Assembly (NCBI GenBank): GCA_964610245.1
Contig: CAZSVK010000032.1
Location: 1 to 21,035 of the forward strand
Length of the DNA stretch: 21,035 nt
Source of the DNA: an uncultured bacterium
GTDB lineage: Bacteria; Muiribacteriota; UBA6191; JACPRK01
Direction: 5' to 3'
The position numbers and the translations under genes are program-made. The notes below the pieces were generated by a model that worked only from the letters and a program-made list of their open reading frames with translations, had not been told where the DNA came from and did not search any database. Shown piece by piece: positions 606-20,666 of this stretch (its first letter is position 1; each line of letters starts with the position of its first letter).

Positions 606-2591
606 TTACCGCTTCCTTCTCGACTCCACGACCGGCTCGGGCGCGGTCGGCGTCGGCGGTTCGGGCGCGGCCGTGGGGGCCGCCCCCTTCTCCTCCGCCG
701 GGCTGGCCGCGCTGGCGACCTTCGCGGCGAGCTCGGCCGCCGCCGAGACCACGCTGGCCAGCTTGCTCGAGGTCGCTGTCTCGGTGAGGAAACCCTCGAC
801 CGACTGCCGGATCGACATGCCCTGGCTGAACGACTCAGCCATGCGGCTGAAGGTGGTCGGGTCTCCGTAGATGGTGAAGTTGCCGCGGGAGAGCATCGTC
901 CCGATCGCCTGGGCCCGTGCGATCTCGACCTGGCCCTGGGTCTCGATCGCCTTCAGGCGCACCTGGAGATCGATGGCCGCCTTGCCATACATCTCCTGGA
1001 CCTCGAGTCGGCGGGACTCGACCTCGACCTTCTGGCGCTCGACCTCGACCAGCCGCTGCTGCACCGTGACGGTGACGCTCTGCTCGGCGGTGGCGCCTTC
1101 CGCCCGCTTCTTGGCCGCCTCGGCGTCCGCGTCGGCTCGCTTCTTCGTGGACTCGGCATCGGCTTCGGCCGATTTCATCCGGGCCTCGTACTCGGCCTGG
1201 GCGGCGGCCTTCTTCGCCTCGGCCTCCTTGAGCACGGTGTACGCCGCGGCGTCGGCTTTGCGCTGCTCGCGGACCAGGTCCTGATCGGCAGCCTTGGAGG
1301 CGGCGATGAGCTTCTGGTCGCCCTCGCGGTTGGCCTGGGCCTTGATCTTGACCGTCTCGATCTCCTGGGCGGCCTTCTCCCGCTCGGCCATCTTGAGCAG
1401 TTGTCCGGCCTCGGCCTCGGCGCGCTGTGTCTGGGCCTCGGCAATGGCCGTGAGCTTCTGCTGCTGCGCGGTCTCGATAGCCTTCTGTTTCTCGACCTCG
1501 GTCAGCTCGCGCTGTCTCTCGGCCTCGATGACCCGCTTCTGGGCCTCGACCATCGCCATCTCGATGGTGTTCTGCTTCTCGACGTCGGCCAGTTCGCGCT
1601 GGCGTTCGCTCGCCAGCACCTTCTGCTGGGCTTCGAGTTCGGCCGCCTTGATGGCGCGGCCTCGCTCGACCTCGCGGGCCTGCACGTACTGCTCCTGCTC
1701 GATCTGGGCCTGCTTCGACTCGGCCTCGCGCTGGGCCTGGATCTTCGCAATCTCCATCTGCTGGCCGGCCTCGGCCTCGGCCTGCTGCTGCTCGAGCTTG
1801 AGGATCTGCAGGCGCGTCTGGACGTTGCGCTCCTTCATCGCCTGCTGCGCGAACTGCTCCGACTCGTTGCGCTTCACCATCGCCTCGGTGGTGATCTCGG
1901 TGATGCGCTTGAGACCCTGGGCGTCGAAGACGTTGTCGGCCTTCAGGTTCTCAGGGGCGGTCTGGTCGAGCTTCGAGATGGTCACGGTCTCGAGCGTCAG
2001 GCCGTTGTGCTTGAGGTCGGGCTCGACCTGCTGCTTGACCTCGGCCGCGAACTCGTTGCGCCGCGTGTTCAGCTCTTCCAGAGTGCGGTTGGCGGCGACC
2101 GAGCGCAGGGCGCTGATCAGCTTGTCGTTGACCAGATTGGCGATCATCTCGGGCTGGTCGGCCAGGGGGCCGAGCGAGCGGGCCGCATTCTGGATGTCCT
2201 CTGCCTGAGGCATTACCCTGATGTAAAACTCGGCTTTCAGATCGGCGCGCAGCTTGTCGGCGGTGATGAGGGAATCGGGGCCCGAACGATCGACGTCGAG
2301 CCGTGTCGTGGTCAGCGGGACACGCACCAGCTCGTGCATCACGGGGATGATGAGCGCACCCCCGTCCAGGATGACCCACGTGCCGCCCCAGCCGGTGCGG
2401 ACGAACGCCTCGTTGGCGGCCGGCCGGACATAGAGCCGGGTCACCGTGGCCACGCTCACTCCGAGGGCGAGCAGCACCACGCCGAAGCCGCTGACGACCA
2501 CCTGGCTGGCCGTGCTGTTCATCACGGGGATCATGTACGGGCCGACGATCAGGACGATCGAGAAACCGATCCAGAGAGCCATCTTACCCAT
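606..2591 (-). CDS. yqiK: flotillin-like SPFH/Band-7 domain protein, YqiK type (661 aa): N-terminal TM helix, SPFH domain, long Glu/Ala/Gln-rich coiled coil with ERQREL-x-VEKQ repeats, Ala/Pro-rich C-tail
   Basis: ATG at 2591 and TAA at 606-608. The N-terminus MGKMALWIGFSIVLIVGPYMIPV is hydrophobic. The SPFH-like region (FVRTGWGGTWVILDGGALIIPVMHELVRVPLTTTRLDV...) matches the flotillin/YqiK pattern from memory. The coiled coil is highly repetitive. The gene sits 4 nt downstream of an NfeD-like gene, the yqiJK arrangement. Confidence 0.85.
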   Translation of the reverse strand: MGKMALWIGFSIVLIVGPYMIPVMNSTASQVVVSGFGVVLLALGVSVATVTRLYVRPAANEAFVRTGWGGTWVILDGGALIIPVMHELVRVPLTTTRLDVDRSGPDSLITADKLRADLKAEFYIRVMPQAEDIQNAARSLGPLADQPEMIANLVNDKLISALRSVAANRTLEELNTRRNEFAAEVKQQVEPDLKHNGLTLETVTISKLDQTAPENLKADNVFDAQGLKRITEITTEAMVKRNESEQFAQQAMKERNVQTRLQILKLEQQQAEAEAGQQMEIAKIQAQREAESKQAQIEQEQYVQAREVERGRAIKAAELEAQQKVLASERQRELADVEKQNTIEMAMVEAQKRVIEAERQRELTEVEKQKAIETAQQQKLTAIAEAQTQRAEAEAGQLLKMAEREKAAQEIETVKIKAQANREGDQKLIAASKAADQDLVREQRKADAAAYTVLKEAEAKKAAAQAEYEARMKSAEADAESTKKRADADAEAAKKRAEGATAEQSVTVTVQQRLVEVERQKVEVESRRLEVQEMYGKAAIDLQVRLKAIETQGQVEIARAQAIGTMLSRGNFTIYGDPTTFSRMAESFSQGMSIRQSVEGFLTETATSSKLASVVSAAAELAAKVASAASPAEEKGAAPTAAPEPPTPTAPEPVVESRRKR

Positions 2592-2595
2592 AGCG

Positions 2596-3597
2596 TTACC
2601 GGCCTTTCACCCTTCGCGCCCCGGGGTGCTTTCTGGCTTGCCGCCCGCGCGCTCGAGCATGCGCCGAAGCGGGTTCCGCCAGGGGCCGAGCATCCGGGTG
2701 CGCATCGATCGGCTCGGCCAGATAGAGGGACTGGGATTCGTCGTAGTCGAGGAAGAGGATCTTGCTTCCGAGTTCGAACTTCGTCCCCGGACTGCCGTGG
2801 ACGTGAACCTCGAGCAGGTTGTGGTTGGGATCGTAGACCTGCGCGTAGGCCCCGCCGTCGCTGAGCGTGCCGGTGATGGTGCCGGTCTGGCCCACGCAAT
2901 CGCAGCGCTGCAGCGCATAGGTTTCCATCCGGGGCAGCACTCGGGCGAACGTCCTGGCGAAGGTCCTGCTGATCGCGAGCCCTCCGCCCATCGCCAGGGC
3001 CATCGAGAGCCAGACGTACACGAGCGGGGGCAACAGCTGGCCGAGCAGGTGGTTGGACACCAGCCCGATGATCCCGAAGGAGAGGGACAGGACGACCAGG
3101 ACCAGCATCAGGGGGGCCCGGTCGGCTCCGGGCAATGCCAGGGCCCACTGCATCCACCCAGGCGAGTGGGCCTCGTCGGTGCCGTGACCCGGCTCCGCGT
3201 CGTGGGCGGTGGCGAGCGTCGCATCGTGCACGACGTCGCCAGACGCCTCGGCATCGTGGTCGACCTCGGCGTGCAGGTCGTGGTCCGCATCGGCGTCCAG
3301 GTCATGGTCGACCTCGACATGTACCTCGTTCCCGAGATCGACGTGTACCTCGTTCTCGATCGCGACATCCAGATCGTGGTCGACGTCGGCATGGAAGTCG
3401 TGGTCGACGTCGGCGTGCAGATCGTGGTCGACGTCGGCGTGCAGGTCATGACCGACCTCCGCATCGTGACCGGCCTCGGCGTCATGGTCGGTATCATGCC
3501 CCTCCGTGCCCGGACCGAGAGCGGCCATCATCGACAGCATGCACGCCGTCAGGACGGGCAGCTCGAAGATCAGGTTCCACCAGGCCAGCCACTCCAT
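2596..3597 (-). CDS. yqiJ: NfeD/YqiJ-like membrane protein (about 334 aa) with an inserted His/Asp-rich (LHADVDHD)n repeat region between the first TM segment and the C-terminal TM plus OB-fold (NfeD) domain
   Basis: The six-frame ORF runs to 4431, but everything upstream of the Met at 3597 is antisense to the epimerase gene. MEWLAWWNLIFELPVLTACMLSMMAALG is a TM segment. The C-terminal part (LMLVLVVLSLSFGIIGLV...CDCVGQTGTITGTLSDGGAYAQVYDPNHNLLEVHVHGSPGTKFELGSKILFLDYD) resembles the NfeD short-form beta-barrel. The stop TAA at 2596-2598 lies 4 nt before the flotillin start. An alternative start is the Met at 3627. Confidence 0.7.
   Translation of the reverse strand: MEWLAWWNLIFELPVLTACMLSMMAALGPGTEGHDTDHDAEAGHDAEVGHDLHADVDHDLHADVDHDFHADVDHDLDVAIENEVHVDLGNEVHVEVDHDLDADADHDLHAEVDHDAEASGDVVHDATLATAHDAEPGHGTDEAHSPGWMQWALALPGADRAPLMLVLVVLSLSFGIIGLVSNHLLGQLLPPLVYVWLSMALAMGGGLAISRTFARTFARVLPRMETYALQRCDCVGQTGTITGTLSDGGAYAQVYDPNHNLLEVHVHGSPGTKFELGSKILFLDYDESQSLYLAEPIDAHPDARPLAEPASAHARARGRQARKHPGARRVKGR
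3253..3492. repeat. intragenic tandem array of about ten 24-bp units (consensus atcgtggtcgacgtcggcgtgcag), inside the yqiJ-like gene; encodes (L/F)HADVDHD on the minus strand
   Basis: Units phase exactly at 24 bp from 3253. Units 3397-3420 and 3421-3444 differ only at their first base. Degenerate copies extend to about 3190 and 3500. Confidence 0.85.
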
Positions 3598-3762: not shown

Positions 3763-4761
3763 TTGCGCGTGCAAGTCAGAGGCGGGCGCTTTGCGGTCAC
3801 CGGTGGGGCCGGATTCATCGGGAGCAACCTGGTCCGGGCGCTGCTGGCCGGCGGCGCGGCCAGGGTCGCGGTGCTCGACAACCTGGTCCGGGGCAGGGCC
3901 CGCCATCTGGAAGATCTTGCGGGCGACCGGCGCCTCGAACTGTTGCTCGGCGATCTTCGCGAGAGCTGGCCCGCGGAGGCGGTCGTGCGCGACTGCGACG
4001 CGGTCTATCACCTGGCCGCTCTGCGCATCCCTCGGTGTCAGGAACGGCCGGACGAGTGCCTGGACTCGATGGTTCGCGGCACCTATTCGCTCTTCGACGC
4101 CGCCGCCCGGCATGCCGTGAAGAAAGTGATCTACGCCAGTTCGGTGGCGGTCTACGGACAGCCGGCGCGCCTGCCGGTCGACGAAGAAGCCCCGGCGGCC
4201 CCGACGACTTTCTACGGCGCGGCCAAGGCGGCCGGCGAGGGATTGCTGAGGGCCTTCGGCGCGCGCGGCGCCTTTGGGTGGACCATCCTGAGGTGCTTCA
4301 ACGTGTACGGGCCTCGGATGGACCACGCCGGTCCGCACACCGAGGTCCTCGTCCGGTGGATGCGGGCCCTGCGGTGCGGCCAGCCTCCGAGGGTGTTCGG
4401 CGACGGAGAGACGACGCTCGACCTGGCGCACGTCGACGATGTCGTGACCGCCTACCTGGCGGCCCTGGCTCCCCGGGCGTCGGGGGGCATCTACAACATC
4501 GGCGCCGGTACCCAGGTCTCGCTGGCCTCCCTGGCCCGGATGCTGGCCGCTGCCGCGGGGAGCGGTCTCGAGCCCGAGTTCGCGGCGGCCCCTCCGGCGG
4601 CGCTCGCCCCTCGCATGGAGGCGTCCGTGGAACGGGCCCGTCGCGAGCTGGGGTTCGTGCCTCGTGTGCCCTTGAGCGATGGCCTTGCCTCGCTCTGGCG
4701 CTGGTTCTGCGAGGTCGACGCCCCTTCCGCCGACGCCCGGAACGCCGAGGTGGCGGAATGA
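3763..4761 (+). CDS. NAD-dependent epimerase/dehydratase, extended SDR family (332 aa); nucleotide-sugar 4-epimerase or decarboxylase type
   Basis: N-terminal Rossmann motif VTGGAGFIGSNLV and catalytic S...YGAAK (YxxxK) are present. The start is TTG at 3763 (alternative GTG at 3769). The stop TGA at 4759-4761 overlaps the next start as ATGA. Confidence 0.85.
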   Translation: MRVQVRGGRFAVTGGAGFIGSNLVRALLAGGAARVAVLDNLVRGRARHLEDLAGDRRLELLLGDLRESWPAEAVVRDCDAVYHLAALRIPRCQERPDECLDSMVRGTYSLFDAAARHAVKKVIYASSVAVYGQPARLPVDEEAPAAPTTFYGAAKAAGEGLLRAFGARGAFGWTILRCFNVYGPRMDHAGPHTEVLVRWMRALRCGQPPRVFGDGETTLDLAHVDDVVTAYLAALAPRASGGIYNIGAGTQVSLASLARMLAAAAGSGLEPEFAAAPPAALAPRMEASVERARRELGFVPRVPLSDGLASLWRWFCEVDAPSADARNAEVAE

Positions 4762-16738: not shown

Positions 16739-18421
16739 TCAGGCTCCGGCGCGGCTGGCCTGGGCCAGCTCGGCCAGGAGCTTGCGGATTGGCTCGCCCT
16801 CGCGAGGCGGGAGCTGCAGCTGCTGGCGCTGGAGGAGTTCGGCGGCCTGGCGGCCAAGCTGGGTGAAGGAGGCCTTGATCTTCTCTTGCAGGTGTTCGAT
16901 GGCCGAGGTCCGGGTGGCATCCTCGGGATCTCCGCGCTTCACCATGTAGTTCCGGAGGAAGTCCTGATAGCGGAGGACCTCGTAGAAGACGCTGTCGAGG
17001 TTCTCGTGAGTGAGCACGTTGAGCCTGCAGAGCTGGTAGATCTCGGTGCCCAGGCCACGGTAGAGTTCCTCGAGATGGGCGGCCTGCTCCGGGGCCGAAG
17101 GGGCCTTGGCCGGGGCCGCCAGAGGCGCGGGGGCCGGCGCTGCCGGTTCGGGCTTCTCGGGGATCGGCGGCGGGGCGGCGGCCTCGGCGGCCGCGCGCTG
17201 GTTCTGGAGCAACACCTTGATGGCCCGGAGCGCTTCGGCGGCGGCCTCGCAGATGTTGATGTCGAGGTCGTTGAGCATGCGCTTGAGGGCGATGACCACG
17301 GCGCGCGTCGGGAAGCGGGCGAGCGCCTTGGTGGCCCGCAGGCGAACGCCCTCGTACGGGTCGTCGAGCGCGTGCAGGAGCAGCGCCTCGACGAACGGCA
17401 TGTCGATCTTGGAGAGAACGTAGACCGCCGTCTCGCGCATGCTCATCGCCGACTGCGCGAGCATGTCCCGGAGCGTGTCTTCGACCCCGGCGTAGCCCAG
17501 CTTCGCCAGAGCGACCGCGGCGTTACCGCGAGCGCGGTTGTTGCGGTCGGCCAGGCGCGGAACCAGCCAGTCGATGTGATGGTGCGTGCCCAGCCGCTCG
17601 AACACCTCGATGGCGTTGGCTCGAACGCGATCGTCGGCGTGCTCCAGGAGCGATCGTAGTGCGTCCAGGTCGGCGGTGGTGCCCTTTGAGGCGAGCTGGA
17701 TCAGACAGGATGCGATGTAGTAGGTCGGAAGCGGCCGCGTGATCGCGTCGAGCAGCTCGGGCCGCGACAGCGAGCTTGCGTCCGGCAGCGGAGGACCTGC
17801 CGGCTTGGCGGGCGCAGTCGGCGCGGGGGCCGGGCGCGGGGGCCGGGGCGGCAGGCCGGCCACGGGCGGCGCGGCTACCGGCGGGGCGGCCTGCGCGATC
17901 GCGGCTGCGGCCGGTGGGGCGGCAGGGATCGCGACCGGGGCCGGGGCCGGCGCGGCGCTGGGTGCGCCTACCAGCGCCGGCGCCCCGGGCAGGACGACCG
18001 CCGCCACCGGCTGCTGCGGCTCGATCGCGATCGGCTGGAGCGGCGCTACCGGGGCGAGCGTCACGGGTATGACCGGCGACTCGAGTGCCTGCACGAACGG
18101 GATGGGCGTGGCAACCACCGGCGCGGCGATCGGCTCGGGTGAGGGCGTCGCGGGGCCGGCCGGTCCTGCCGGGGCCTCCTGGTCGTGGAGGCATGCCTTG
18201 AAGGCCGAATCGATGTGATTGAAGGCCTTGCGCGCCAGGAATACGACGTCGGGATTGTCCGACGACGACAGCGGCTTGAGGCGGGCCGCGATCTCGCGGA
18301 TCTCTGCGGGAGAGTCGACGATCTGCGGGCTGAGCCGCGTGATGCTCATCAGGGCGAAGGTCTTGATCTGCGGATCGGGATGAGCGAGATCGGCGCAGAT
18401 TTTCGCGAGATTGACGGCCAT
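16739..18421 (-). CDS. HEAT-repeat protein, paralog 1 (560 aa) with a long Pro/Ala-rich low-complexity linker
   Basis: The start is the internal ATG at 18421 (MAVNLAKICADL...), preceded by AGGAG with an 8-nt spacer; the ORF-track start at 18463 lacks an RBS. HEAT repeats DDRVRANAIEVFERLGTHHHIDWLVPRLADRNNRARGNAAVALAKLG... are present. The C-terminal motif FYEVLRYQDFLRNY matches paralog 2. Confidence 0.75.
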   Translation of the reverse strand: MAVNLAKICADLAHPDPQIKTFALMSITRLSPQIVDSPAEIREIAARLKPLSSSDNPDVVFLARKAFNHIDSAFKACLHDQEAPAGPAGPATPSPEPIAAPVVATPIPFVQALESPVIPVTLAPVAPLQPIAIEPQQPVAAVVLPGAPALVGAPSAAPAPAPVAIPAAPPAAAAIAQAAPPVAAPPVAGLPPRPPRPAPAPTAPAKPAGPPLPDASSLSRPELLDAITRPLPTYYIASCLIQLASKGTTADLDALRSLLEHADDRVRANAIEVFERLGTHHHIDWLVPRLADRNNRARGNAAVALAKLGYAGVEDTLRDMLAQSAMSMRETAVYVLSKIDMPFVEALLLHALDDPYEGVRLRATKALARFPTRAVVIALKRMLNDLDINICEAAAEALRAIKVLLQNQRAAAEAAAPPPIPEKPEPAAPAPAPLAAPAKAPSAPEQAAHLEELYRGLGTEIYQLCRLNVLTHENLDSVFYEVLRYQDFLRNYMVKRGDPEDATRTSAIEHLQEKIKASFTQLGRQAAELLQRQQLQLPPREGEPIRKLLAELAQASRAGA

Positions 18422-18506
18422 GAACCGGACTCCTGCCGGACGGTGCCGGCATCTGCCGATCATATCGATGCAGCGCCCGAAAGTAAAGGCACCCGGGGCG
18501 TCGGGC

Positions 18507-20666
18507 CTATCTCGGCGAGGGGTTGCGCCGGGGCTCGGGGGGCACCTGCAGCTCGCTGCGGCGGCCGCAGATCGAGAGCCACACCCGCGCCTGCAGTAAC
18601 CGCCAGGCCAGCTCCCGGTCGAGCGGATCGGCCGAGGCTCCGGCGGCCGGATCGCGCGGCCAGTGGGTGATCAGCCGATCTCTCAGCCCGACCCAGGTCC
18701 GGAACTGCGCCTCGTGTTTCTGGAGCCGGTCTTCCGACGTAAGAAGGGCCGCCAGCAGCAGGCGGTTGCGCGTCTGCGCCGTCTCGTAGAAGGCCAGCTC
18801 CGCGGCGGGCGGCATGGCGGCGCCCGAGGCGCCCGACACCGGGGCGAGCCACGAGCTGGTGAGCCGTTCGACGGCGTCGAAGGCGCCCATCAGGATCAGC
18901 GTCCTGAGCGCCGCGGAGGCCAGCGCCAGGTCCTGCATCGTGGGCGCGGCCGGCAGCCGGATCCGGGGCGTGAGCGCCAGCGCGTTATCGACGACCTCCT
19001 TGTGCAGGGCGTCGATCGCTCTGCCCTTCAGGTCGTAGCGCGAAAGGGCCCGGAGGGCCAGCCATCCGGTCCGCCAGACCGGATCGCGCGACTGGATCAG
19101 GATCGGGGGCACCTGGCCCTGGAATCGAACGGCGTCGGACGATAGCCTCTCCATGACGCCGGCGACCTTGAACTCGAGCGAGAAAGAGCCGATCAGGGCG
19201 AAGGTGATGGTCTTGAGGCTTGCCTGGGCGGTCATCGCGTCCCAGCTCAGGACCCGGATGTGCTCCGTCAGGAGGAAGAACCTGACGAGCAGCTCTCCGG
19301 CCATGGGCGCTCCTTCCGGCCCGTTGTTGCGGGCGAGGCTCGCCGCGGCCGGCAGGGCCTGAATGATGGCGTTCTGCGCCCGCTTCCAGATCGCGAAGAT
19401 GCGTTCGAGCAGGACCGGCGTCGAGAGCGAGGCCGGGTCGCGCAGATCCTGGGCGTGGCCTTGCTCGGCCTCGGCCCGGAGCGCCTCGATCGTTCGCGTC
19501 GCCTCCGCGGCAGCCTCCCGGGCCTTCTCGAGCAGCTGCTTGCGGTGGGCCTCGGCCGACGGCTCGGGCTCGGGCGTGGCGACCCGGGCGATCGGAGGCG
19601 CCGCGGCAGGAGGCGCGCCGCTCCGCGCGTAGAGCAGGATCCCGGCCGCGAGCACGGTGGCGAGCAGGGCGACCCCCAGGCCTATCATGACCGAGCGATC
19701 CCTTACCGCCGCCGTGGCGATCTGACTCGACCGGGTCGACGTGCGAGGCCTGGGAGCGCGGGTGACGCGCCGGGCGGCTTCGCGGGCGGCGACCGAATCG
19801 GCGCGGATCATCGTGGCCTCGAGCAGGGTCTGGTCGTTCGCCAAATGCTGCAGGGCGGAGATCAACTCGCGTGCGCCGGCAAACCTGTCTTCCGGCGCCT
19901 TGGCCAGGCAGCGGGCGAGGATGCGATCGAACTCCGGGGGGACCCCGCGGCCGAGAGAGGCCAGCGGCGGCACCGGCGACTTCACGTGCTGCTTGAGGAT
20001 CGCCTGGGGCTCGGGTCCGCCGAAGGGGGGTTCCCCCGCGAGACACTCGAAGAGCACGACGCCGAGGGCGTACAGATCGGACGCGGGGCCGGCCGGCTTG
20101 CCCACGATGGTCTCGGGGGCCAGGTAGGCCGGGGTGCCCATCACGAACCCCTTGCGGGTCTGGACGAGCCCCTCGGTGGCCAGGTCTTTGGCGATGCCGA
20201 GGTCTCCGATGAGTGGCCCCCGGTCGACGGAGAGAAAGATGTTCTCGGGCTTGATATCCCTGTGCAAGATGCCCGCGTCGTGAAGCGTGGCCAGGGCGTC
20301 GGCGCAGGCCAGGACAACATCCACGCTCTGCTGAACCGGGAGCGGCCCCTCGCGGTGCAACTTCTCCCTGAGCGTCTTTCCGTGCACCAGCTCGAAGGCC
20401 AGGAACAGGCGGTGCTCCTGCTCTCCGACTTGCAGGACTCGCACGAGCTGGGGGTGCTGCACCCGCGCGGCGAGGATGCCCTCCTGCAGGAAGCGCTTGC
20501 GCGAGGCCTCGTCGAAGGCCAGATCCGACGTCAGGACCTTGAGCGCGACCGGCCTGTCGAGCGAGATCTGGCGGGCCTTGTAGACGATCCCCATGCCGCC
20601 CTGGCCAAGCTTGCCCTCGATGCGGTAGCCGCCGAGAACGGAGCCGGCCGGGAGTTCGTGTCGCAT
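18507..20666 (-). CDS. Hanks-type Ser/Thr protein kinase (719 aa) with one TM helix and a ~380-aa C-terminal, probably extracytoplasmic, domain of unknown function
   Basis: Kinase motifs GQGGMGIVYKARQ (Gly loop), ALK (catalytic Lys), HRDIKPENIFL, DLGIAKD and GTPAYLAPE are present. The TM segment is VMIGLGVALLATVLAAGILLYA. ATG at 20666 and TAG at 18507-18509. Confidence 0.9.
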   Translation of the reverse strand: MRHELPAGSVLGGYRIEGKLGQGGMGIVYKARQISLDRPVALKVLTSDLAFDEASRKRFLQEGILAARVQHPQLVRVLQVGEQEHRLFLAFELVHGKTLREKLHREGPLPVQQSVDVVLACADALATLHDAGILHRDIKPENIFLSVDRGPLIGDLGIAKDLATEGLVQTRKGFVMGTPAYLAPETIVGKPAGPASDLYALGVVLFECLAGEPPFGGPEPQAILKQHVKSPVPPLASLGRGVPPEFDRILARCLAKAPEDRFAGARELISALQHLANDQTLLEATMIRADSVAAREAARRVTRAPRPRTSTRSSQIATAAVRDRSVMIGLGVALLATVLAAGILLYARSGAPPAAAPPIARVATPEPEPSAEAHRKQLLEKAREAAAEATRTIEALRAEAEQGHAQDLRDPASLSTPVLLERIFAIWKRAQNAIIQALPAAASLARNNGPEGAPMAGELLVRFFLLTEHIRVLSWDAMTAQASLKTITFALIGSFSLEFKVAGVMERLSSDAVRFQGQVPPILIQSRDPVWRTGWLALRALSRYDLKGRAIDALHKEVVDNALALTPRIRLPAAPTMQDLALASAALRTLILMGAFDAVERLTSSWLAPVSGASGAAMPPAAELAFYETAQTRNRLLLAALLTSEDRLQKHEAQFRTWVGLRDRLITHWPRDPAAGASADPLDRELAWRLLQARVWLSICGRRSELQVPPEPRRNPSPR

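Follow-up and report, generated by a model that had tools for sequence, protein, structure and literature searches.

The 21,035-nucleotide contig CAZSVK010000032.1 of an uncultured Muiribacteriota bacterium, referred to below as the window, carries at positions 2596-3597 of the minus strand a gene for a membrane protein of 333 residues. Our analysis identifies its product as an NfeD protein of the YqiJ/DUF1449 type; proteins of this kind are small membrane partners of YqiK-type flotillins, with which they are co-transcribed. The long Asp/His-rich segment that follows the first transmembrane helix (TM1) is the family's own TM1-TM2 loop, in most members a Lys/Arg-free (Asp-x)n tract in which His is the commonest x. 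In the lineage of the window, tandem duplication of a 24-nucleotide unit has made this loop about three times as long as the family median. The gene itself is an ordinary member of a YqiJ/YqiK pair, and the family-wide (Asp-x)n/His loop is the part newly recognised. The explanation that we tentatively prefer overall is a YqiJ-type NfeD protein whose repeat-expanded cytoplasmic loop binds divalent cations.

The family assignment is based on profile, structural and genomic evidence. Comparison of the family alignment with E. coli YqiJ using hhalign gave a probability of 97.1% (E 6e-11) over TM2, TM3 and the OB domain. At the level of the single sequence, Pfam YqiJ_N (PF21001) scored 21.7 bits for a cut-off of 23 bits, YqiJ_OB (PF07290) was absent at E<=0.01 and a PDB sequence search with the whole window protein returned no match at E<=1. 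PF21001 is found in the precomputed annotation of about three quarters of the homologues listed. A single-chain AlphaFold2 (AF2) model, built on an alignment of 115 sequences, shows the domain order that defines the YqiJ/DUF1449 family, with three TM helices at the N-terminus and a soluble, all-beta OB domain after them, at a predicted local distance difference test (pLDDT) of about 90 or higher. Search of the PDB with Foldseek revealed YbbJ in the E. coli QmcA-YbbJ SPFH-NfeD cage as the top match (8z5g, E 5e-5), and the NfeD OB domains of YuaF (2k14) and PH1510-C (3wwv) at ranks 3 and 4. The adjoining gene encodes a flotillin, which over 470 residues shares 35% identity with E. coli YqiK (E 3e-71). 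Its database relatives carry the names YqiK or flotillin, the nearest named organisms being Ca. Wallbacteria (73%) and Ca. Riflebacteria (69%). The same yqiJ-like/flotillin pair occurs in every fetched related locus that reaches past the yqiJ-like gene (L001, L002, L005, L008 and L009). The pair corresponds to the NfeD2-SPFH2 operon (Hinderhofer et al. 2009, PMC2636767), "NfeD2" denoting YqiJ in its role as partner of YqiK. The initial annotation, made from the DNA letters, had called the protein a YqiJ/NfeD-like flotillin partner; the hhalign score, the NfeD structural matches and the YqiK-like neighbour bear this out.

The pair is laid out as follows, residue numbers being those of the yqiJ-like protein.

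606-2591, minus strand: YqiK-type flotillin of 661 residues (Pfam Band_7, E 8e-9); its ATG, at 2591, lies 4 nucleotides past the yqiJ-like stop codon.
2596-3597, minus strand: yqiJ-like (DUF1449/NfeD2) gene of 333 residues, from the open reading frame (ORF) and its translation; stop codon at 2596-2598.
3520-3582, minus strand: TM1, residues 6-26, with a conserved W-W-N-L motif inside (AF2 helix, pLDDT 85-96).
3157-3516, minus strand: Asp/His-rich, Lys/Arg-free loop, residues 28-147, predicted disordered (composition; pLDDT below 50 over residues 40-131).
3112-3156, minus strand: short amphipathic helix (AF2, residues 148-154) and the G-x-G-[RK]-x-P motif, here P-G-A-D-R-A-P, preceding TM2.
2938-3111, minus strand: TM2-TM3 helical hairpin, residues 163-220 (AF2 helices 163-185 and 191-220, pLDDT 90-97).
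2710-2886, minus strand: five-stranded NfeD-type OB fold, residues 238-296 (AF2 strands, pLDDT 89-96; Foldseek NfeD matches).
2599-2706, minus strand: basic C-terminal tail, residues 298-333, of low confidence and probably disordered (10 Lys/Arg, 3 Asp/Glu; pLDDT 55-58).

The window protein, read from the minus-strand ORF, begins MEWLAWWNLIFELPVLTACMLSMMAALGPGTEGHD, with MEWLAWWNL as its N-terminal residues. Sequence alignment of the 115 family members reveals at least 90% conservation of W6, N8 and L9 in TM1 and of G157, G159 and P162 in the motif preceding TM2; G175, G178 and N182 of the hairpin are conserved as well. Of the 120 loop residues, 28 are Asp, 20 are His, 11 are Glu and none is Lys or Arg, which amounts to a net charge of -39. 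The loop also has 7 D-H-D triplets. The C-terminal tail, with 10 Lys/Arg in 36 residues, has the opposite charge, and the tails of the nearest homologues differ. A contact between loop and tail, intra- or intermolecular, is conceivable.

E. coli YqiJ shares with the window protein the succession of TM1, loop, TM2-TM3 hairpin and OB fold, as well as the position directly upstream of a YqiK-type flotillin. Its 209 residues agree with the size of about 200 residues that had been taken as normal for YqiJ proteins, which is fair for this characterised member. E. coli YqiJ has a small, rudimentary version of the loop (...GALDAHLDHYDSITTGH...) of about 35 residues, as compared with 120 residues organised as a regular 8-residue repeat array in the window protein. 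The two proteins are about 25% identical over TM2-OB, and the window protein has an extra basic C-terminal tail. More distant are the short NfeD proteins YbbJ (8z5g), YuaF (2k14), PH1510-C (3wwv) and the S. aureus NfeD that works with FloA (PMC11222466), which resemble the window protein in their membrane-anchored OB fold, docked on an SPFH partner in the cytoplasm. Their partners are stomatin-like or FloA-type SPFH proteins, whereas that of the window protein is a long flotillin of the YqiK type. We know of no long acidic or His-rich loop in these short NfeD proteins.

Because the repeat itself could bias a first homologue search, we used a loop-free query made of the C-terminal 189 residues (TM2, TM3, OB domain and tail) against 1.84 billion cluster representatives. 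Family hits number at least 663 in all. Loop statistics were derived from the best 150 matches, of which 141 have recognisable TM1 and TM2. In these 141 representatives the TM1-TM2 loop has a median length of 43 residues (10th-90th percentile, 15-73). Median fractions of Asp, His and Glu are 0.20, 0.13 and 0.05, respectively, and Lys and Arg together account for about 2%. Asp, His and Glu make up at least 0.30 of the loop in 122 of the 141 cases, and His alone at least 0.10 in 93. Loops of at least 100 residues are found in two representatives. Those of other clusters reach 113-134 residues, and the 120 residues of the window protein stand at the long end of a continuum. The segment had initially been described as an insertion of about 100 residues; this view has to be abandoned, since an Asp/His-rich loop devoid of Lys/Arg is the rule in the family and that of the window is a long example. 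Natural variants of the loop range from about 10 to about 130 residues.

The order of the residues is as characteristic as the composition. In the 121 loops of at least 20 residues, adjacent acidic residues were observed 19 times for 405 expected (z -28). Recurrence of acidic residues is seen at lags 2, 4, 6 and 8 (z +24 to +31) and that of His at lags 4 and 8; even lags are favoured by hydrophobic residues too. Runs of at least four acid-x dipeptides are present in 82 of 150 family members and in 6 of 119 flotillins used as a control. More than acidic low complexity, the loop is an (Asp-x)n tract whose order includes a super-period of 8 residues. The fraction of His ranges from 4% to 25% across the family and some loops are nearly pure (D-A/V/L)n. 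The idea that the loop is a dense His/Asp array typical of metal binding holds as far as composition goes; family-wide, however, His is secondary and alternating Asp is the invariant trait.

Three homologues from Candidatus Thorarchaeota (P0106, P0115 and P0082) have loops of 113-117 residues, of the form (E/D-H-D/E-V)n and with about 21-23% His. The loop is thus not restricted to bacteria. A Lys/Arg-free loop with alternating Asp-x extends from several bacterial phyla to Asgard archaea, and a full-text search of the literature on YqiJ, DUF1449 and NfeD returned no description of it.

The initial annotation read the repeat as translated and genuine, and both points hold. The start codon and TM1 with its WWNL motif, located 5' of the loop, are kept in more than 100 homologues, whose N-terminal pattern is MxxLxWWNL. 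The closest relative, P0002 (locus L001), is 89% identical, lies on a syntenic contig and also has 333 residues. Its loop differs from that of the window by two 2-codon indels that compensate each other, so that total length is equal. Its sequence is identical in two independent assemblies (ENA and Logan). Between P0002 and the window protein, the ratio of nonsynonymous to synonymous divergence (dN/dS) is 0.14 in TM2-OB and 0.19 in the loop, the latter being less secure for a reason given below. G+C content by codon position is 0.75/0.41/0.85 for the whole gene and 0.91/0.30/0.81 for the loop. The loop is coding and under purifying selection here. That the repeat would be untranslated, with a start codon downstream of it, or be an assembly artefact has a practically negligible probability. 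Two features could be invoked for it, namely a mechanical ORF that extends up to a GTG at 4431 and plus-strand ORFs that overlap the gene; both are normal for high-GC DNA and lend it no real support. Against it stand the conservation of TM1 and WWNL 5' of the loop in the 115 aligned homologues, the coding signature given by the third-position G+C content (0.85 in this frame) together with dN/dS, and the agreement of the two assemblies of the close relative. In addition, the near-identical block spans only 72 nucleotides. We also rejected the 611-residue mechanical ORF up to GTG 4431 as the gene, as it overlaps a divergent epimerase gene on the plus strand (3763-4761) and the N-terminus of homologues is at MEWLAWWNL.

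At the DNA level, the loop contains a tandem array with three young units:

3253-3492, minus strand: ten in-frame units of 24 nucleotides (8 codons), consensus peptide L-H-A-D-V-D-H-D, from reading in the coding register and Tandem Repeats Finder.
3373-3444, minus strand: the three youngest adjacent units (3-5); units 3 and 4 are identical at 23 of 24 positions, 3 and 5 at 21 and 4 and 5 at 20.

Tandem Repeats Finder itself called positions 3254-3459, with a period of 24, 8.6 copies, 73% matches and no indels. Units 1 to 5 encode TDHDAEAG, HDAEVGHD, LHADVDHD, LHADVDHD and FHADVDHD, and units 6 to 10 encode LDVAIENE, VHVDLGNE, VHVEVDHD, LDADADHD and LHAEVDHD. Units 3 (3421-3444) and 4 (3397-3420) are a single base apart, a synonymous GAT/GAC difference; that two of the units differ by one base had been noticed at the outset. 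Units 3 and 10 are likewise one base apart. The ten in-register units are confirmed, but the near-identity initially attributed to them holds for four or five only: units 3, 4, 5, 9 and 10 have 16-23 of 24 positions in common, mostly at least 19, and the remaining units have diverged. Averaged over all pairs of the ten units, identity is 64%, as compared with 31% for in-frame 24-mers taken elsewhere in the gene, and the array stands far above chance.

We considered hairpin or cruciform formation by the array, in which GAC-GTC codon pairs are palindromic. A check for inverted repeats gave a single weak one, of 27 nucleotides with 70% complementarity, and enrichment of GTCGAC is window-wide rather than specific to the array. 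This idea was not retained. The hexamer GTCGAC, which corresponds to Val-Asp/Asp-Val codon pairs, occurs 25 times in the window for about 11 expected, 5 of the occurrences being within the array (3259-3432). GAC being the reverse complement of GTC, an (Asp-Val)n tract reads alike on both strands, which explains the Val/Asp-rich mechanical ORFs of the plus strand.

Period-24 DNA arrays are also present in the loops of other loci. That of L005 (9.0 copies, 96% match) is cleaner than the array of the window, L006 has 7.5-9 copies with 71-75% match and L008 has 5.1 copies with 70% match. Between proteins with 85-92% identity in TM2-OB, loop lengths differ by as many as 15 residues; at about 80% identity the difference reaches 46 residues. 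In the nearest clade (P0003, P0004, P0121 and P0122), loops have 45-94 residues. The arrays found elsewhere and these length gaps indicate that gain and loss of 8-codon units is recurrent in the family. Comparison of copy number is confined to one relative, P0002, at 89% identity, in which total length is unchanged. The length variability between strains that was initially deemed likely finds no support in this one comparison. Single-protein scans of genome and metagenome contigs for closer relatives gave only distant ones (33-46% identity), P0002 at L001 being the sole close relative.

The charge distribution and natural fusions argue fairly strongly that the loop lies on the cytoplasmic face of the membrane, where the OB domain and the SPFH domain of the flotillin are also located. 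Averaged over the alignment, the number of Lys and Arg is 0.10 in the N-tail and 0.67 in the whole loop, for 27 Asp and Glu in the latter. It is 0.92 in the six-residue G-x-G-[RK]-x-P motif and 4.4 in the 27 residues following TM3. Positive charges before TM2 and after TM3 would place both ends of the TM2-TM3 hairpin in the cytoplasm; the loop and OB domain would consequently be intracellular, and the short N-tail would lie on the outer side. One homologue, P0169, is fused to a C-terminal Ser/Thr kinase domain (Pkinase, E 7e-44). Another, P0146, carries at its N-terminus a zf-HC2-like domain, a putative anti-sigma zinc finger (21.6 bits, just below the cut-off), together with one extra TM helix. 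By eye, P0172 has a similar N-terminal extension with one extra TM helix and no Pfam hit. The kinase and zf-HC2-like fusions fit a protein with its N-terminus outside and both loop and C-terminus inside; they also suggest a signalling role in some lineages. In the S. aureus FloA-NfeD system, the NfeD OB domain and the SPFH assembly are cytoplasmic (PMC11222466). E. coli QmcA/YbbK-YbbJ forms a cytoplasmic cage of 26 heterodimers, according to the citation of Tan et al. 2024 in PMC13086221.

The opposite arrangement, in which TM1 would be a signal-anchor with a cytoplasmic N-terminus and the loop would capture or sense metal in the periplasm like the His-rich loop of ZnuA, is very unlikely. Acidic segments devoid of Lys/Arg are readily translocated, the C-terminal flank of TM1 runs contrary to the positive-inside pattern and one homologue was automatically annotated as RcnA-like by JGI (Joint Genome Institute). 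The conserved Lys/Arg directly before TM2 and the 4.4 positive charges after TM3 speak against such a topology, as do the fusions. Moreover, the N-tail does not have the positive n-region of a signal peptide and the OB domain must reach the cytoplasmic flotillin.

With a cytoplasmic location, the following mechanism may be proposed. One loop per protomer, in a ring of YqiJ under the flotillin assembly, would concentrate hundreds of carboxylates and imidazoles at the cytoplasmic face of the membrane. We infer, with moderate confidence for this step, that the loop is a low-affinity, high-capacity, multivalent binder of divalent cations. His/Asp loops would favour Zn, Ni, Co, Fe(II) and Mn, and Asp-only variants Mg and Ca. 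The tract would have one face made up entirely of Asp or His and an opposite face of His or hydrophobic residues; neutralisation of the alternating acidic face by cation binding or protonation would allow the tract to condense. Condensation might then couple the local metal or pH state to the NfeD-flotillin assembly, or the loops might buffer metal at the microdomain. Loop length would be tuned over evolution through gain and loss of repeat units.

Several observations point, though weakly, to a link with metals. The loop has 20 His and 39 Asp/Glu per 120 residues. In Shewanella, knock-out of the flotillin SO1377 resulted in three-fold less free iron and less siderophore, and a metallochaperone role was speculated for its DUF1449 partner SO1376 (Gao et al. 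2006, PMC1468410). Deletion of E. coli yqiJ is among 119 Ag-sensitive hits of a Keio screen (PMC6071238). SO1376 and SO1377 of Shewanella oneidensis form the same two-gene unit as the window pair. The argument there came from Cys/His residues and from weak similarities to transporters in a protein of 212 residues, and not from an Asp/His repeat loop. It is the sole proposal in print of a metalloprotein or metallochaperone role for a DUF1449 partner. The initial annotation had considered a metal-linked flotillin partner as not described. This stands for the Asp/His loop, on which we found no paper, but not for the metal link as such, given the 2006 proposal for the Shewanella partner (PMC1468410). 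The loop could be a molecular basis for the unexplained iron phenotype of the Shewanella flotillin mutant.

Other data weigh against cation binding by a cytoplasmic loop. With His contents as low as 4% and as high as 25%, and some loops almost pure (D-A/V/L)n, a His-specific transition-metal role cannot be the ancestral function. Across the window, L001 and L005-L009, no metal-homeostasis gene is conserved beside the pair. A yqiJ frameshift in Salmonella is without phenotype in iron-poor egg white (PMC6137255). The AF2 monomer yields no structure for the loop. The topology is itself an inference, and a strongly acidic cytoplasmic flank of TM1 is contrary to the usual positive-inside pattern. 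Finally, synonymous divergence from P0002 is raised in the loop (dS 0.49 versus 0.20), possibly through misalignment or conversion between repeats, which makes dN/dS there less secure.

The leading competitor of the cation-binding model is a polyanionic electrostatic or entropic spacer, in which charge and bulk alone act and metal binding is incidental. We consider this somewhat unlikely. Such a loop would, for example, exclude proteins, nucleic acid or anionic lipid headgroups from beneath the flotillin assembly, or would set the spacing of the NfeD protomers. Asp and the absence of Lys/Arg are universal while His varies, the loop is predicted disordered and plastic in length, and the neighbourhoods just mentioned are without metal genes, all of which a spacer would accommodate. 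A pure bristle should, however, be indifferent to residue order, at odds with the avoidance of adjacent acidic residues (19 versus 405 expected) and the even-lag recurrence (z up to +31). Hydrophobic residues at alternate positions are not expected of an entropic spacer either.

Residue order bears in the same way on the notion that the tract is neutral low-complexity sequence, tolerated rather than selected, whose length changes by slippage in a permissive loop. The strong length variation among close relatives, the young DNA-level arrays and the low pLDDT would suit this notion. It is hard to reconcile with a dN/dS of 0.19 in the loop, with the conservation of total length through two compensating indels at 89% identity and with the retention of composition and alternation across bacterial phyla and Asgard archaea; we give it little credence. 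A pH sensor, in which interleaved His (pKa about 6-7) and Asp would shift charge and compaction and so gate the NfeD-flotillin assembly, draws on the density of D-H-D triplets (7 in the window loop) and on the periods of 4 and 8 of His relative to Asp. Many members are low in His (4-8%) and cytoplasmic pH is tightly buffered, which leaves this idea a slim chance. Strict residue order thus counts against the spacer and neutral readings, as the charge and fusion data count against a periplasmic loop.

The cation-binding model may be extended to the whole family. The (Asp-x)n/His loop would then be a conserved module that makes flotillin assemblies cation-responsive or cation-storing: dozens of loops per assembly would line the cytoplasmic side, possibly inside the dome, with a polyanionic layer rich in imidazole that condenses to amphipathic beta-structure on divalent metal or protons. 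This extension is speculative and in our opinion unlikely to be correct. If true, flotillin microdomains of bacteria and archaea would be tied directly to metal/ion homeostasis, with a capacity tuned by repeat gain and loss, a function so far assigned to no SPFH-NfeD system. Bacterial flotillins and their NfeD partners are widespread and their molecular role is debated, with scaffolding, chaperoning of unfolded proteins and membrane fluidity under discussion. Here, the loop offers the hypothesis of a cation or pH responsiveness of the NfeD-flotillin complex.

Flexible His/Asp-rich loops involved in metal handling are known in ZnuA, RcnA and the ZIP and CDF transporters. The window loop resembles them in composition, predicted disorder and lack of basic residues: it is a dense flexible tract of 20 His and 39 Asp/Glu with pLDDT below 50. 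This is a functional analogy only, not homology, and in place of His runs the window loop shows strict (Asp-x)n alternation and a super-period of 8 residues. No transporter or solute-binding domain was found in the window protein with Pfam and NCBIfam. A match to NCBIfam ZrgA (14.8 bits for a cut-off of 185) was discarded as compositional. His-rich disordered proteins that oligomerise with Zn, the subject of PMC6571702, are a further analogy of this kind.

A second resemblance is to the (Asp-X)n acidic tracts of biomineralisation matrix proteins, which are eukaryotic and extracellular and for which Ca2+ binding as beta-sheets has been proposed. In both cases Asp alternates strictly with a small or hydrophobic residue, giving a strand with one fully acidic face. 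These proteins are unrelated to YqiJ, and the likeness is a resemblance only; to our knowledge YqiJ proteins have no link to mineral or Ca. Three further candidates were rejected. The C-terminal triple beta-helix of T4 gp5 (Pfam Gp5_trimer_C; 18.2 bits here and 20.4 for P0005, cut-off 30.9) has only the 8-residue period in common with the loop. The MSCRAMM Ser-Asp repeat adhesins SdrC, SdrD, ClfA and ClfB (NCBIfam, about 20 bits for cut-offs of 999-2500) share D-x dipeptide composition only. The Ca-binding RTX beta-roll repeats have the nonapeptide GGxGxDxUx, whereas the period here is 8 and not 9 and there is no GGxG motif.

Beyond the flotillin gene, the window neighbours of the pair are glycan-synthesis genes and genes for a HEAT-repeat protein and a Ser/Thr kinase; in other loci the neighbouring genes are unrelated. 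The HEAT-repeat and kinase genes (16739-18463 and 18507-20666, minus strand) are some 13-17 kb away from the pair. L006, an unrelated locus, also has a HEAT-repeat gene (2165-3571), two genes upstream of its yqiJ-like gene; this may be a coincidence. An ORF of 87 residues with 2-3 hydrophobic segments and no Pfam match is found at 167-430 on the minus strand, 175 nucleotides downstream of the flotillin stop codon. A gene of 87 residues is called at the same place in the syntenic locus L001 (9280-9543). This ORF possibly adds a third component, a small membrane protein, to the locus.

The region encoding the flotillin coiled coil contains in-frame DNA duplications at 1472-1636 (period 87, 1.9 copies) and 1105-1169 (period 33, 2.0 copies), so that internal tandem duplication has enlarged both members of the pair. 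Finally, a tandem heptamer, AGGGGTT, is repeated at 35-74 (5.7 copies, 90% match), within or beside small mechanical ORFs.

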